A stretch of DNA of 64,000 nt from Escherichia coli (GTDB lineage Bacteria; Pseudomonadota; Gammaproteobacteria; Enterobacterales; Enterobacteriaceae), in the NCBI RefSeq assembly GCF_003790525.1, contig NZ_CP033635.1; one strand, 5' to 3'. This document shows, piece by piece, positions 2,433-58,829 of this stretch (position 1 is the stretch's first letter; every line of letters begins with the position of its first letter). The translations under genes and the position numbers were made by a program. The notes beneath the pieces are model-generated. The model was not told the origin of the DNA. It saw nothing but the letters and a program-made list of their open reading frames with translations, and made no database searches.

Positions 2433-2460
2433 GCCCCGGAGAAATCCGGGGCAATTTCAG
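2433..2460 (+). terminator. hairpin downstream of asnB (gccccgg-agaaat-ccggggc) followed by a weak T-run
   Basis: inverted repeat 2433-2452 read directly; T-tract is weak. Confidence 0.4.
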
Positions 2461-2730
2461 TTACTGGGGCGCTTGTTGATTCTGATATGCAGTAAGGAAA
2501 TGTTCCGGGTTTGCCACATCGCTGTTTGACAACTCATTACTGTAGGCCAGTATTTCATAGATTAATTTCCCACCACTATTGTTGAATTCCGAATTTCATC
2601 CTGTATGACAAAAGAATGGCTGTAGGGTGGGGAAAAAACACAAAGTAAACAATAATTGACGAATATAGCGCCACGCTGTTCGCAACCTAACCAAACAGTC
2701 ACTTTCGAGCAATTTTCCTTGAAAAAGAGG

Positions 2731-2760
2731 TTGACGCTGCAAGGCTCTATACGCATAATG
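2731..2760 (+). promoter_or_regulatory. candidate sigma70 promoter of the tRNA operon (TTGACG -35, 17-bp spacer, CATAAT -10, GC-rich discriminator gcgccccgc)
   Basis: motifs read in sequence ~40 bp upstream of the first tRNA; GC-rich discriminator is typical of stringently controlled stable-RNA promoters. Confidence 0.55.
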
Positions 2761-2799
2761 CGCCCCGCAACGCCGATAAGGTATCGCGAAAAAAAAGAT

Positions 2800-2876
2800 G
2801 GCTACGTAGCTCAGTTGGTTAGAGCACATCACTCATAATGATGGGGTCACAGGTTCGAATCCCGTCGTAGCCACCA
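2800..2876 (+). tRNA. metT: tRNA-Met (elongator, anticodon CAT)
   Basis: 77-nt sequence GGCTACGTAGCTCAGTTGGTTAGAGCACATCACTCATAATGATGG...GTAGCCACCA with encoded CCA. Confidence 0.97.
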
Positions 2877-2884
2877 TCTTTTTT

Positions 2885-2969
2885 GCGGGAGTGGCGAAAT
2901 TGGTAGACGCACCAGATTTAGGTTCTGGCGCCGCAAGGTGTGCGAGTTCAAGTCTCGCCTCCCGCACCA
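2885..2969 (+). tRNA. leuW: tRNA-Leu (anticodon TAG), long variable arm
   Basis: 85-nt sequence GCGGGAGTGGCGAAATTGGTAGACGCACCAGATTTAGGTTCTGG...CCCGCACCA. Confidence 0.96.
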
Positions 2970-2992
2970 TTCACCAGAAAGCGTTGTACGGA

Positions 2993-3067
2993 TGGGGTAT
3001 CGCCAAGCGGTAAGGCACCGGTTTTTGATACCGGCATTCCCTGGTTCGAATCCAGGTACCCCAGCCA
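2993..3067 (+). tRNA. glnU: tRNA-Gln (anticodon TTG)
   Basis: 75-nt TGGGGTATCGCCAAGCGGTAAGGCACCGGTTTTTGATACCGG...CCCCAGCCA. Confidence 0.96.
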
Positions 3068-3101
3068 TCTTCTTCGAGTAAGCGGTTCACCGCCCGGTTA
3101 T

Positions 3102-3176
3102 TGGGGTATCGCCAAGCGGTAAGGCACCGGTTTTTGATACCGGCATTCCCTGGTTCGAATCCAGGTACCCCAGCCA
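3102..3176 (+). tRNA. glnW: tRNA-Gln (anticodon TTG), second copy
   Basis: same 75-nt sequence as 2993-3067. Confidence 0.96.
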
Positions 3177-3191
3177 TCGAAGAAACAATCT

Positions 3192-3268
3192 GGCTACGTA
3201 GCTCAGTTGGTTAGAGCACATCACTCATAATGATGGGGTCACAGGTTCGAATCCCGTCGTAGCCACCA
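3192..3268 (+). tRNA. metU: tRNA-Met (elongator, anticodon CAT), second copy
   Basis: same 77-nt sequence as 2800-2876. Confidence 0.96.
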
Positions 3269-3316
3269 AATTCTGAATGTGTCGAATATGTTCGGCAAAT
3301 TCAAAAACCAATTTGT

Positions 3317-3391
3317 TGGGGTATCGCCAAGCGGTAAGGCACCGGATTCTGATTCCGGCATTCCGAGGTTCGAATCCTCGTACCCCAGCCA
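3317..3391 (+). tRNA. glnV: tRNA-Gln (anticodon CTG)
   Basis: 75-nt TGGGGTATCGCCAAGCGGTAAGGCACCGGATTCTGATTCCGG...CCCCAGCCA; anticodon is wild-type CTG (not the supE amber-suppressor CTA). Confidence 0.96.
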
Positions 3392-3428
3392 ATTTATTCA
3401 AGACACTTACCTTGTAAGTGCACCCAGT

Positions 3429-3503
3429 TGGGGTATCGCCAAGCGGTAAGGCACCGGATTCTGATTCCGGCATTCCGAGGTTCGAATCCTCGTACCCCAG
3501 CCA
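3429..3503 (+). tRNA. glnX: tRNA-Gln (anticodon CTG), second copy
   Basis: same 75-nt sequence as 3317-3391. Confidence 0.96.
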
Positions 3504-3507
3504 CATT

Positions 3508-3540
3508 AAAAAAGCTCGCTTCGGCGAGCTTTTTGCTTTT
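3508..3540 (+). terminator. rho-independent terminator of the tRNA operon (agctcgc-ttcg-gcgagct + TTTTTGCTTTT)
   Basis: perfect 7-bp stem with tetraloop directly followed by T-run, 5 nt after the last tRNA. Confidence 0.85.
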
Positions 3541-3718
3541 CTGCGTATATTCAATGTCGAATGCGATGTTGATACAGCTAATTTGAATTTGGCCCACGGT
3601 TCAGGGCAAACCAGCCTGGAAGCACACTCAGGCGCGGTTTTCCCCCTCACCCTAACCCTCACCCGAGGGGCGAGGGGACCGTCCGCACGCTTTTGTAGCT
3701 TTGGTATCAACCGTTACG

Positions 3719-4894
3719 CTACAACCCTAACGCATATTTCAGCGCCTGACGTTTCAACACGCCAGCACGCTCCGCCGCCATTAATCCGAGATTACGCATA
3801 AAACGCAGTGGTGGCAGATTATTGCTGAATCCGGCATAAAACAGATCCATACCGCTTTGCATAATGAAGTTATCCGCCATGCGCCGCATCTGGTAACGCT
3901 TGAGCACAGGATAACTGGCCCACGCTTCGCCGTAGCTGCGGGCGTTCACCAGAACGTCAATCAGGGCATCGACATCACGATAACCAAGATTCACCCCCTG
4001 CCCCGCCAGCGGATGGATGGTATGCGCGGCATCTCCCACCAGTGCCAATCCCGGCTGAACATACTGCAACGCATGGCGACGTGTCAGCGGAAACGCCCCC
4101 GCGGCAAGCGGTGTCACGTAACCCAGACGCGACGGGAAATGCTTCGCGATTTCCGCCTGTAGCTGCGCCATATTCATATTCTGCAACTGGCGAATGCGCG
4201 CCGGAGAGTCATACCACACCAGCGATGCCCAGTTATCAAACAACGGCAGAAACGCACGCGGTCCGTCCGGGGTAAATTGCTGCCAGGTGCTATCGCCGGG
4301 ATCGTTCTCGCACTGTACGCTAATCAACATACACGACTGTGCATACTGCCAGGCATGAACGCCAATTCCCGCCATCTGCCGCACCTGCGAATTTGCGCCG
4401 TCGGCACCAATCACCAGCTTCGCGCGGATCGTTTCACCGCCCTTCAGTTCCAGCTCCTGAAGATCATTATGGCGATGCAGCGCAATCAGCGAGCCTGGCA
4501 CACGTAACGTTACTTTCGGATGCGCTTCCAGCGCCTGCCACAGCGCCTGTTGCAGGACAGTGTTTTCCACCATGTAGCCAAGCAACGGTAGCTTAAGTTC
4601 AGCGGCGTCAAACACCACATGCGCCGTTTCCCACTCCCACGTTTCCAGTCTGCGGTAAGGATGGCAACGCATAGCCTGTACTGCATCCCAGACCCCTAAC
4701 CCTTTAAGCAATGATACCGAAGCCGCACTAATCGCCGAGATCCGCACGTCCGGCTGGCTGTCAGCGACAAACGGTGCAGGTTGGGCATGTTCGATAACCA
4801 TTACCGAAAATCCGTGCTGAGCCAGTCCCAGCGCCAGTGCGCCGCCGACCATTCCTCCGCCGACAATGGCAATTTCCGTTGGTTGATTTGTCAT
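3719..4894 (-). CDS. ubiF: 2-octaprenyl-3-methyl-6-methoxy-1,4-benzoquinol hydroxylase (FAD monooxygenase), 391 aa
   Basis: N-terminal Rossmann motif IAIVGGGMVGGALALGL; ORF may start two codons upstream at 4900 (ATGACCATG). Confidence 0.93.
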   Translation of the reverse strand: MTNQPTEIAIVGGGMVGGALALGLAQHGFSVMVIEHAQPAPFVADSQPDVRISAISAASVSLLKGLGVWDAVQAMRCHPYRRLETWEWETAHVVFDAAELKLPLLGYMVENTVLQQALWQALEAHPKVTLRVPGSLIALHRHNDLQELELKGGETIRAKLVIGADGANSQVRQMAGIGVHAWQYAQSCMLISVQCENDPGDSTWQQFTPDGPRAFLPLFDNWASLVWYDSPARIRQLQNMNMAQLQAEIAKHFPSRLGYVTPLAAGAFPLTRRHALQYVQPGLALVGDAAHTIHPLAGQGVNLGYRDVDALIDVLVNARSYGEAWASYPVLKRYQMRRMADNFIMQSGMDLFYAGFSNNLPPLRFMRNLGLMAAERAGVLKRQALKYALGL

Positions 4895-11048: not shown

Positions 11049-11957
11049 ATGCAATTACGTAAACCTGCCACAGCAATCCTGGCCCTGGCGCTTTCCGCAG
11101 GACTGGCACAGGCAGATGACGCCGCCCCGGCAGCAGGCAGTACGCTGGACAAAATCGCCAAAAACGGTGTGATTGTCGTCGGTCACCGTGAATCTTCAGT
11201 ACCTTTCTCTTATTACGACAATCAGCAAAAAGTGGTGGGTTACTCGCAGGATTACTCCAACGCCATTGTTGAAGCAGTGAAAAAGAAACTCAACAAACCG
11301 GACTTGCAGGTGAAATTGATTCCGATCACCTCACAAAACCGTATTCCGCTGCTGCAAAACGGCACTTTCGATTTTGAATGTGGTTCTACCACCAACAACG
11401 TCGAACGCCAAAAACAGGCGGCTTTCTCCGACACTATTTTCGTGGTCGGTACGCGCCTGCTGACAAAAAAAGGCGGCGATATTAAAGATTTTGCCGATCT
11501 GAAAGACAAAGCCGTCGTAGTCACTTCCGGCACCACCTCTGAAGTTTTGCTCAACAAACTGAATGAAGAGCAAAAAATGAACATGCGCATCATCAGCGCC
11601 AAAGATCACGGTGACTCTTTCCGTACCCTGGAAAGCGGTCGTGCCGTTGCCTTTATGATGGATGATGCTCTGCTGGCTGGTGAACGTGCGAAAGCGAAGA
11701 AACCAGACAACTGGGAAATCGTCGGCAAGCCGCAGTCTCAGGAAGCCTACGGTTGCATGTTGCGTAAAGACGATCCGCAGTTCAAAAAGCTGATGGATGA
11801 CACTATCGCTCAGGTGCAGACCTCCGGTGAAGCGGAAAAATGGTTTGATAAATGGTTCAAAAACCCAATTCCGCCGAAAAACCTGAACATGAATTTCGAA
11901 CTGTCGGACGAAATGAAAGCACTGTTCAAAGAACCGAATGACAAGGCACTGAACTAA
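11049..11957 (+). CDS. gltI: glutamate/aspartate ABC transporter periplasmic binding protein, 302 aa
   Basis: ATG at 11049 preceded by AAGGAG; signal peptide MQLRKPATAILALALSAGLAQA; ORF-track start at 10974 is an upstream extension. Confidence 0.93.
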   Translation: MQLRKPATAILALALSAGLAQADDAAPAAGSTLDKIAKNGVIVVGHRESSVPFSYYDNQQKVVGYSQDYSNAIVEAVKKKLNKPDLQVKLIPITSQNRIPLLQNGTFDFECGSTTNNVERQKQAAFSDTIFVVGTRLLTKKGGDIKDFADLKDKAVVVTSGTTSEVLLNKLNEEQKMNMRIISAKDHGDSFRTLESGRAVAFMMDDALLAGERAKAKKPDNWEIVGKPQSQEAYGCMLRKDDPQFKKLMDDTIAQVQTSGEAEKWFDKWFKNPIPPKNLNMNFELSDEMKALFKEPNDKALN

Positions 11958-12114
11958 TTACAAGAACCAGGGGCGGAAATTCCAGCCCTCTCGATTGTTA
12001 CGTAGCACGGACAGACTATACGCCTGATGGTCGTTCCCCATCGGGCCTGAAAACCGCAATACGCTGGGTAACAATCTTCGAGGGTAGCAGTTAACGCTGC
12101 TACCCTCTTTTTTC
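11958..12114 (+). ncRNA. sroC: SroC-type sRNA region (gltI-gltJ spacer ending at an intrinsic terminator)
   Basis: location between gltI stop and gltJ start with terminator hairpin 12080-12107 and T-run; SroC is known to derive from this spacer; exact 5' end not determinable here. Confidence 0.55.
12080..12114 (+). terminator. intrinsic terminator/attenuator within the glt operon (gagggtagcag-ttaa-cgctgctaccctc + TTTTTT)
   Basis: 11-bp perfect stem plus T-run read directly. Confidence 0.8.
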
Positions 12115-12126
12115 TGGAGTAGATTT

Positions 12127-41302: not shown

Positions 41303-41337
41303 CCAAAAAAAACCCGCTGATTAAGCGGGTTTTGAAT
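41303..41337. terminator. bidirectional intrinsic terminator between convergent crcB and cspE (AAAAAAACCCGCTGATTAAGCGGGTTTT)
   Basis: stem with A-run and T-run on opposite sides. Confidence 0.75.
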
Positions 41338-41352
41338 TCTTGCTGACGTATC

Positions 41353-41562
41353 TTACAGAGCGATTACGTTTGCAGCAGAAGGGCCTTTGGCACCGTTAGT
41401 GATTTCGAACTCTACGCGCTGACCTTCAGCAAGAGTTTTAAAACCATTAGTCTGGATTGCAGAGAAGTGTACGAACACGTCTTTGCTGCCGTCTTCCGGA
41501 GTAATGAAACCGAATCCTTTGGACTCATTAAACCACTTAACGTTACCTTTAATCTTAGACAT
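41353..41562 (-). CDS. cspE: cold-shock-domain protein CspE, 69 aa
   Basis: [37 protein letters not shown] with RNP motifs; ORF-track upstream extension to 41646 rejected. Confidence 0.95.
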
Positions 41563-41736
41563 CAAAATTACCTTTACATGAAAAATAGACACAAATGCTG
41601 TGTCGGTTACCAGTACACCAATTGTGGTACGCTTTGTCCAGTGCAACTTTACTAAAAAGTGATAAAAGTCGCGTTATTTTTGATGTTAATTATTTTAGTG
41701 GTTGATTTTAAAGAATTTACTAAAACTTCATTTGTC

Positions 41737-42297
41737 TCAAAACTGAAAGCGCATCCAGGCAAAGTACACATTGCCATTGTTGTAGGTACCCGGAATGTAG
41801 GTCATCTGAAACGTCGCGGGGCCATACCCCACAGAGGCCAATGGCAGTAGAACCGGGAGAGGGATGTAATTCCAGTTATCGCGTGCCGTTACGCCAGCGG
41901 TGAATCCCAGGCCTAAATGAAAATTTTCATCTGCCAGCGGTCGCCAGGTACTTTCCCATCCGTATCCGGCAATCGGTTCCCATTTGTTCCACGAGTCCTT
42001 AAATGCCATGGCATACAGGCCATGCCAGTTTCCTTTTTCGTCCCAACGCGACTGACCAAAACCGCCACCCCACGGTCGCTCGTTATAGCGATCGGTTTTT
42101 TCTTTGTCATAGGCAAAACGCGCATGCCAGGTGATGGCAGGAATATATAAATCATAATGTTCTGGCTGTTGCCAGGTTTGTGCAATATTTTCTCTAAACG
42201 TTGTCATCCACTCATCAGCGTTAGCAAAAACTTTACCAACACTGATTAACTGAATAAAAACAAAGAAAAATATAGTGACATATTTACTCACGTTCAT
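41737..42297 (-). CDS. pagP: lipid A palmitoyltransferase PagP (outer-membrane beta-barrel), 186 aa
   Basis: matches recalled PagP incl. signal peptide. Confidence 0.95.
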
Positions 42298-54656: not shown

Positions 54657-54885
54657 TCCTCTGATTTACAAAACACGCTAATTCGTCTTCCATAAACCAT
54701 GACGATTAAGATTTATACATAATGCGCTACATTGAGGAATTCCCTGAATGTGACGCAAATCACTTCAAAGAGTGAGCAACAGTCAGTATCATCATGTGAG
54801 TTAAACCCTCGCCGCCTGACGGTGAGGGTTTTCTTTTGGGTATGTTTATCTGCGACACTCGCAGTACCGACGACATGGAGTAAAA

Positions 54886-58458: not shown

Positions 58459-58829
58459 CTATACTTCCTCCGTGTTTTCGATGAGATGTAAGGTAACCAA
58501 TTTTTGCCGATTCGGCTAATGCGTTTCCATTATCAAATCGATAAGTTTTACCTTACAACCTTCGTAAGACAACTTTGTGAACTTTGCACCGCCAGCGGCG
58601 ATAAAAAGTAAAATGGCCCCCTTTCCAGGTGACCGTGTAATCTGAACTACCCTTTGGTATCTTCAGCGCCTGCCTGCAGGCTGAGGTGTTGCCCTTACAA
58701 ATGCAACAACGACGTGGATTACAACACCCTCATAAACAAAGGGCAATCACCTGATCTAAGCTCTTACCTATGACAGTGATAGGTTATGCCTTTTACCCGA
58801 CTTTTGCACTGACTGAAAAGGACAAATTA
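58459..58829. promoter_or_regulatory. divergent ahpC / dsbG control region (OxyR-regulated per literature)
   Basis: 371-bp non-coding spacer between divergent genes; OxyR site expected from established knowledge, not motif-confirmed. Confidence 0.5.

Follow-up and report, generated by a model that had tools for sequence, protein, structure and literature searches.

The seven-tRNA metT operon of Escherichia coli and its natural variation in gene copy number

The stretch of E. coli DNA analysed here, referred to as the window (64,000 nucleotides), carries an array of seven tRNA genes on its plus strand at positions 2800-3503, in the order Met(CAU)-Leu(UAG)-Gln(UUG)x2-Met(CAU)-Gln(CUG)x2 (Table 1). 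ARAGORN, Rfam and the RefSeq annotation were concordant on this order, and ARAGORN found no tRNA gene in the 64-kb window beyond these seven. The scores against Rfam RF00005 ranged from 57.6 to 71.1 bits for all seven genes, compared with a gathering score of 29, and each gene encodes its 3' CCA. After coordinate conversion, the boundaries and isotypes of all seven tRNAs were identical to those in the RefSeq annotation of NC_010498.1. The original prediction of seven tRNAs with these boundaries and isotypes, made from the sequence without any database search, thus agreed with all three sources. A set of 17 mechanically called ORFs (40-161 aa) overlapping the tRNA genes was dismissed, as RefSeq annotates none of them.

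According to the RefSeq annotation, the array is flanked upstream by asnB on the same strand and downstream by ubiF on the opposite strand, and Klebsiella, Yersinia and further E. coli strains have the same flanks. The gene order is the one given for the metT operon in the literature (PMC2241853, PMC6265465, PMC11480407), and no observation contradicted this identification. The locus is almost certainly the E. coli metT operon, an essential unit of seven tRNAs on one transcript, which is already known and would not surprise a specialist. It shares gene order, isotypes, anticodons and the asnB/ubiF flanks with the operon described in the literature and in RefSeq, and differs from it in strain-level details alone. 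The T-run in the Met-to-Leu spacer has 6 T in the window and 7 T in some E. coli strains. A stretch of 146 nt located 3' of the terminator (3560-3705) is present in 37 of 5,426 genomes, and the other strains examined have a different sequence there. A segment of 1,101 bp containing the array has 100% identity to E. coli SMS-3-5. Among the 5,426 complete E. coli genomes the locus was matched in 5,424, with at least 80% of the query found at one place in 5,254 of them, and the array was at least 99% identical in 4,946 genomes.

Table 1. Positions of the tRNA genes, spacers and transcription signals of the metT operon in the window
Feature	Position	Strand	Basis and remarks
Sigma-70 promoter-like site: -35 TTGACG, 17-nt spacer, -10 CATAAT	2731..2759	+	Consensus scan, 10/12 matches
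GC-rich stretch GCGCCCCGC, directly 3' of the -10 CATAAT	2760-2768	+	Sequence reading
5' leader of the primary transcript (start approximate)	2767..2799	+	Inferred from promoter position
metT, elongator tRNA-Met(CAU), 77 nt, encoded CCA	2800..2876	+	ARAGORN; Rfam 71.1 bits; RefSeq tRNA-Met
Spacer 1, 8 nt	2877-2884	+	
leuW, tRNA-Leu(UAG), 85 nt, long variable arm, encoded CCA	2885..2969	+	ARAGORN; Rfam 57.6 bits; RefSeq
Spacer 2, 23 nt	2970-2992	+	
glnU, tRNA-Gln(UUG), 75 nt	2993..3067	+	ARAGORN; Rfam 62.1 bits; identical to glnW; cloverleaf fold
Spacer 3, 34 nt	3068-3101	+	
glnW, tRNA-Gln(UUG), 75 nt	3102..3176	+	ARAGORN; Rfam; identical to glnU
Spacer 4, 15 nt	3177-3191	+	
metU, elongator tRNA-Met(CAU)	3192..3268	+	ARAGORN; Rfam; identical to metT
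Spacer 5, 48 nt	3269-3316	+	
glnV, tRNA-Gln(CUG), 75 nt	3317..3391	+	ARAGORN; Rfam 62.0 bits; 7 differences from glnU/W
Spacer 6, 37 nt	3392-3428	+	
glnX, tRNA-Gln(CUG)	3429..3503	+	ARAGORN; Rfam; identical to glnV
Putative intrinsic (Rho-independent) terminator: 11-pair hairpin AAAAAGCTCGC-TTCG-GCGAGCTTTTT, then GCTTTTCTGC	3509..3544	+	Terminator scan

Direct comparison of the genes showed that metT and metU, glnU and glnW, and glnV and glnX are each 100% identical, as had been predicted for the two Met copies and for the genes within each Gln pair. The UUG and CUG types of Gln gene differ at 7 of 75 positions (30, 33, 38, 49, 50, 62 and 63). Of these, 33 is the wobble base, and the other six make up three compensated pairs, one in the anticodon stem (30:38) and two in the T-stem (49:63 and 50:62). 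Both Gln types have a cloverleaf as their minimum-free-energy structure. The prediction confined the differences between the two Gln pairs to the surroundings of the anticodon loop, which was incorrect, as four of the seven lie far from this loop, in the T-stem. Elongator tRNA-Met is told apart from the initiator by a Watson-Crick 1:72 pair and by an anticodon stem that does not end in three consecutive G:C pairs. Because the CAU tRNAs of the array (acceptor stem GGCTACG/CGTAGCC) have a G1:C72 pair and the anticodon stem CAUCA/UGAUG, they are elongators, not initiators. An identity as elongator tRNA-Met, as opposed to tRNA-Ile2 with a lysidine-modified CAU anticodon, would fit the RefSeq annotation as tRNA-Met, the description of metT and metU as identical elongator tRNA-Met genes (PMC6265465) and the ac4C reported at the wobble position (PMC5400242). 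At the distal end of the array, supE44 was reassigned to glnX, of which the classical amber suppressor is an allele (PMC4444293).

The array is bracketed by motifs for the start and the end of transcription. The TTGACG-17-CATAAT site is the sole promoter match on the plus strand within 2450-3760, in a scan that gives about as many sites in shuffled sequence. The terminator is likewise a consensus match only, and about as many sites were found when shuffled sequence was scanned for terminators. Both motifs gain their weight from where they lie, one at either end of the array, and from published work. In stable-RNA promoters, a GC-rich stretch after the -10 element serves as a stringent-control discriminator, and the presence of such a stretch here suggests that the promoter may be subject to growth-rate or stringent control.

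Northern blots in K-12 detected one full-length transcript with all seven tRNAs (PMC2241853). In the same study, RNase E removed the terminator before RNase P acted and also separated the distal tRNAs, RNase P separated the first five tRNAs and made the mature 5' ends, and RNase T, PH and D completed the 3' ends; processing intermediates that keep the 5' non-coding region were reported as well (PMC2241853). Together with the promoter-like site upstream and the hairpin and T-run (3509-3534) downstream, these blots support the view, also part of the original prediction, that the array is an operon. In the pathway that we propose for the window, transcription from one sigma-70 promoter would yield a single seven-tRNA transcript ending at the intrinsic terminator. 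RNase E would act first, taking off the terminator and separating the last tRNAs; RNase P would then free the upstream five by cleavage at their mature 5' ends, and the exonucleases RNase T, PH and D would trim the products to the genome-encoded CCA. The two distal spacers have A+T contents of 69% (48 nt) and 62% (37 nt), a composition that might bear on the action of RNase E at the distal end of the transcript.

The unit contains every gene for tRNA-Gln(UUG), tRNA-Gln(CUG), elongator tRNA-Met and tRNA-Leu(UAG). Being the sole source of both Gln isoacceptors, of elongator tRNA-Met and of tRNA-Leu(UAG), it is essential in K-12, where deletion of the transcription unit required complementation from a plasmid (PMC11480407) and a Delta7::kan strain is sustained by plasmid pT6 (PMC6265465).

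In the assembly of the clinical isolate CEA224S (GCF_051122395.1) the whole array is absent, and ...GCGAAAAAAAAGA is joined directly to CATTAAAAAAGCTCGC... at the junction. The gap corresponds to approximately positions 2799-3503 of the window and has base-precise edges with 1 nt of microhomology, and no other of the 5,426 genomes has this junction. Queries consisting of Gln genes and spacers only matched one genome fewer than queries containing the flanks. The lysT array of CEA224S is intact. Inspection of all 133,924 bp of pCEA224S found no tRNA genes, and no further CEA224S replicon is on record. Because the unit is essential in K-12, the absence is probably an artefact of assembly or of post-assembly editing. 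That the chromosome of CEA224S really is without the operon, with the tRNAs located on an element missing from the assembly, is hardly credible.

The original prediction also held that the array is a recombination hot spot and that copy-number variants are plausible between strains. We took a census of the array with synthetic junction queries against the 5,426 complete E. coli genomes, sorting variants into classes that overlap and are not additive. Arrays shortened by at least one gene, with flanks no more than 600 bp apart, were present in 185 genomes. The junction diagnostic of a single CUG gene (Met-spacer-CUG-terminator) was found in 152 genomes and that of a single UUG gene (Leu-spacer-UUG-spacer-Met) in 71. 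Three or more CUG copies were found in 29 genomes, and three or more UUG copies in 35. An uninterrupted Gln-Met-Leu junction, as produced by duplication of a module, was present in at least seven genomes, a number for which single-piece top matches alone were counted, the Met part of the query being able to join the other Met gene; overall, there are about ten module duplications. Roughly 3-5% of E. coli genomes have non-canonical arrays.

Natural E. coli arrays have between 4 and 11 genes, and all of the junctions that were inspected fall inside a repeated gene. Annotation of individual strains with ARAGORN gave six genes in E24377A (Met-Leu-UUG-UUG-Met-CUG), five in ECCTRSRTH03 (Met-Leu-UUG-Met-CUG), four in N18-04097 (Met-Leu-UUG-CUG) and eight, with three CUG copies, in F8704-2. 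Strains CT29, GF130 and Origami2-DE3 have 11 genes each, with additional Met-Leu-Gln(-Gln) modules linked via Met genes. The array of CT29 reads Met-Leu-Q-Q-Met-Leu-Q-Q-Met-Q-Q, in which the first module is cleanly duplicated by way of the identical Met genes, and in GF130 there are three modules of the form Met-Leu-Q. The spacer between glnU and glnW leads in N18-04097 straight into a CUG gene and the terminator, a join which shows a crossover between a UUG and a CUG gene within the 29-nt 5' segment common to both types. Plasmid-borne copies of the array were considered and rejected, as most matches in PLSDB were Mb-sized or chromosome-like records labelled as plasmids, and CP043024.1 was an error-ridden contig.

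It is accepted that homologous recombination adds and removes tandem tRNA genes. At the metT array, homologous recombination between identical or near-identical genes, by unequal crossing-over or slippage, would keep generating copy-number variants. The comparison of tRNA copy number across strains that had been suggested as a check did reveal variation among the 5,426 complete genomes. The prediction of copy-number variants was confirmed, and that of a recombination hot spot is supported by arrays of such different lengths, by the position of their junctions inside repeated genes and by the recombination reported in PMC5400242.

Tandem repeats of ~110 bp might be collapsed or expanded during assembly, and the differences between strains could then be mostly artefacts. 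Five assemblies of laboratory strains with neighbouring accessions (BL21(DE3) CP081489, Stbl4, XL1-Blue, XL10-Gold and TOP10) all show a third UUG copy, which would fit such an explanation, as would the indel-damaged tRNAs in some variant records (glnU in PapRG-04-4, and CP043024.1) and the CEA224S assembly without the entire essential operon. Hence, some of the variant counts may include assembly errors. However, the single-CUG array is present in E24377A and E2348/69, which we take to be finished Sanger-era reference genomes, and two independent assemblies of E2348/69 have it at the same coordinates. It is also common to relatives, namely three BH100 substrains, two O139:H1 strains, the LY180/AQ15/SL112 lineage and SY3626C1/C5. 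The single-CUG form is heritable, as it recurs in independent assemblies and in related strains. Moreover, repeats of ~110 bp are well below the length of long reads and Sanger reads, which span them easily. We therefore consider it improbable that artefacts account for most of the variation, and favour recombination between the repeated genes as its source. It is rather doubtful that copy number reflects a selected, lineage-specific tuning of the supply of Gln, Met and Leu tRNAs and not neutral churn; if it did, the recurrent loss of one glnV/glnX copy (152 genomes, including reference lineages of EPEC, ETEC and STEC) would be adaptive.

We also compared the array across genera, with seven genera sampled. 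Klebsiella has the same seven genes in the same order and pairs, and Yersinia has six genes (Met-Leu-UUG-UUG-Met-CUG); in both, the asnB/ubiF flanks are conserved. The arrays read Met-Leu-UUG-UUG-Met-UUG-Leu in Proteus, Met-Leu-UUG-UUG-Met-UUG in Providencia, Met-Leu-UUG-UUG-CUG, without a second Met gene, in Arsenophonus, and Met-UUGx3-Met-UUG-Met-Leu in Aeromonas. Hence, repeated Met/Gln arrays are common to Enterobacterales and Aeromonas. The signature of the CUG type (A30:T38 and the wobble C) is kept in E. coli, Klebsiella, Yersinia and Arsenophonus, and the CUG gene of Arsenophonus is separated by 3 differences from its E. coli counterpart and by 9 from its own UUG neighbour. The presence of the signature in four genera and these distances place the split between UUG and CUG genes before the divergence of these families.

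In Klebsiella, Yersinia, Proteus and Aeromonas, all Met genes of a given genome have the same sequence and carry the same species-specific substitutions, and this is also true for most UUG copies. Providencia is an exception, with two Met copies that differ at three positions. Homogenisation between the UUG and CUG types is absent. From the shared substitutions we infer that copies of the same type are homogenised by gene conversion; repeated loss and re-duplication gives the same pattern. The array would then consist of old, tandemly repeated genes, in which gene conversion and purifying selection hold same-type copies identical, and the spacers would have drifted past recognition while the gene copies stayed the same. 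The 100% identity of metT/metU, glnU/glnW and glnV/glnX could also be explained by a very recent duplication in E. coli. This is very improbable, given that the seven-gene order and its pairs are found in Klebsiella and a six-gene version in Yersinia with conserved asnB/ubiF flanks, that the spacers within pairs have fully diverged and vary in length between genera, and that the paralogues share species-specific substitutions.

The original prediction described the array as a diverged tandem duplication (Met-Leu-Gln-Gln, then Met-Gln-Gln). Some of the evidence fits an internal duplication: the Met-(Leu)-Gln-Gln periodicity has two occurrences in the array, a module duplication exists in CT29, and the arrays of other genera are compatible with it. 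The spacers retain no residual homology, though. Local alignment of 12 spacer pairs with 2,000 shuffles each gave scores that were all inside the shuffle range (smallest fraction 0.096), and outside the genes the only continuation of the repeat is a weak match (6 of 9) just before the two Met genes. Each Met gene is followed by a spacer of a different length (8 versus 48 nt), as had been noted, but these spacers lead to different genes, Leu and Gln, and are thus not equivalent junctions. The difference in length is in itself no evidence of a diverged duplication. Judged from this sequence, an origin by internal duplication is plausible but not provable.

The same array could have been built stepwise, by tandem duplications of single genes (Gln to Gln-Gln, twice) and a separate gain of the second Met gene, in which case the periodicity would be coincidental. 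In favour of this route, single-gene events are by far the commonest today, loss junctions being present in 152 (CUG) and 71 (UUG) genomes and gain junctions in 29 (CUG) and 35 (UUG), compared with about ten module duplications; the spacers of the two halves have no detectable homology; and Arsenophonus has Met-Leu-UUG-UUG-CUG with no second Met gene. However, a UUG x CUG crossover like that in N18-04097 could turn the seven-gene form into the array of Arsenophonus. Klebsiella, Yersinia, Proteus, Providencia and Aeromonas all retain a second Met gene with Gln after it, and the clean duplication of a module through identical Met genes in CT29 demonstrates that such events occur today. Stepwise build-up is thus possible but the less probable course, and a single ancient duplication of a module is the more likely origin of the array.

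The metT operon matters as the essential single supply point for four tRNA species and as a substrate routinely used in work on tRNA processing. What our analysis adds is only the rough census of its copy-number variants, a modest descriptive addition that opens no new question. Withers et al. 2006 reportedly treated tRNA gene gain and loss in E. coli; a literature search on strain-level variation of the metT array, in which that study was not covered, found no report of this census. The census should be useful for work on tRNA dosage and for suppressor genetics (supE in glnX), and cautions against assuming that a species has one fixed tRNA count.

The metT operon of Salmonella enterica, as carried on pUST313, consists of the same seven genes, and there spontaneous recombination between metT and metU deleted leuW-glnU-glnW to give pUST314 (PMC5400242). 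This is a repeat-mediated event of the class that we infer for the natural E. coli variants. Unlike these, it took place on a multicopy plasmid and under selection against excess tRNA-Gln(UUG); the equivalent deletion in the chromosome would remove essential genes. Within E. coli, the closest parallel is lysT-valT-lysW-valZ-lysY-lysZ-lysQ, likewise an array of seven genes with interleaved repeats and one promoter, whose deletion likewise needs plasmid complementation (PMC11480407). The lysT operon differs in its isotypes, Lys and Val, and in having a second locus with identical genes, whereas the metT unit holds all copies of its four tRNA species. In Pseudomonas fluorescens SBW25, duplication likewise changes tRNA gene dosage, which is flexible at the population level (PMC7661048, PMC10954465). 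The SBW25 duplications are described as large-scale and arose in laboratory populations after deletion of a tRNA gene, whereas the E. coli metT events involve ~110 to 390 bp, take place within one operon via its own repeated genes, and are found in natural isolates.

The assembly of the clinical isolate CEA224S (NZ_CP166080.1) lacks the tRNA array of the metT operon. All seven tRNA genes are deleted with base-precise edges, and the promoter is joined directly to the terminator (positions 4190-4215 of L002, the locus extracted from this record). The deletion corresponds to window 2799-3503, and its junction was present in only one of the 5,426 complete E. coli genomes. A search of the CEA224S chromosome and its one plasmid found no genes for tRNA-Gln or elongator tRNA-Met. 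The absence of the operon from this assembly contrasts with its essentiality in K-12, and it is probably an artefact of assembly or editing. Two other genomes in the collection, recorded as complete and as E. coli, had no match to the metT locus, including the flanks on the asnB and ubiF sides.

Enlarged metT arrays were observed in several assemblies of commercial laboratory strains, whose accession numbers lie close to one another. Three UUG copies are present in BL21(DE3) (CP081489.1), Stbl4 (CP081009.1), XL1-Blue (CP081007.1), XL10-Gold (CP081008.1) and TOP10 (CP080620.1), three CUG copies in Rosetta2-DE3 (CP083274.1), and an 11-gene array in Origami2-DE3 (CP084529.1). These expansions reflect either true variation at the metT locus or a systematic error common to these assemblies.

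Sequences within and next to the array also differ between strains. The T-run of the metT-to-leuW spacer is polymorphic; the spacer is TCTTTTTTT (9 nt; L006, another extracted locus, 479-487) in N18-04097, ECCTRSRTH03, CT29 and Origami2-DE3, and has 8 nt in the window. The stretch between the terminator and ubiF is single-copy and was found in only 37 of the 5,426 genomes, and a different, REP-like sequence occupies this site in the two other strains with sequence read here, CEA224S and N18-04097. The window also contains four further Rfam matches that scored above the gathering score.

Features of the metT locus and additional Rfam matches in the window
Feature	Window position	Strand	Detail
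metT-to-leuW spacer	2877-2884		TCTTTTTT
Terminator-to-ubiF stretch	3560-3705		contains GC-rich hairpin CCCTCACCC-GA-GGGGCGAGGG
sroC sRNA	11953-12115	+	Rfam
cspA-type thermoregulator leader	41305-41753	-	Rfam
rnk leader	54732-54840	+	Rfam
STnc70	58603-58696	-	Rfam

We also found matches on records typed as plasmids. Many of those in PLSDB (hits H31-H48) are Mb-sized or have a chromosomal housekeeping context, such as E. coli records of 4.8-4.9 Mb, Proteus records of 4.1 Mb and one Yersinia record of 502 kb in which asnB and ubiF are present. These records look like chromosomes, or pieces of chromosomes, that were wrongly labelled. Another PLSDB record, CP043024.1 (28.8 kb), carries tRNAs damaged by indels, and one plasmid-typed record in the E. 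coli genome collection has the complete metT locus with its flanks. The plasmid-typed record paIh1 of Arsenophonus nasoniae (NZ_CP123491.1, 117.6 kb) contains a Met-Leu-Gln(UUG)x2-Gln(CUG) array (4001-4496 of the extracted locus L020), which is followed by phage-like regulator genes, and also bears nagB-nagA and a ROK-family gene. If paIh1 is truly a plasmid, an extrachromosomal replicon of this symbiont holds tRNA species essential to E. coli.
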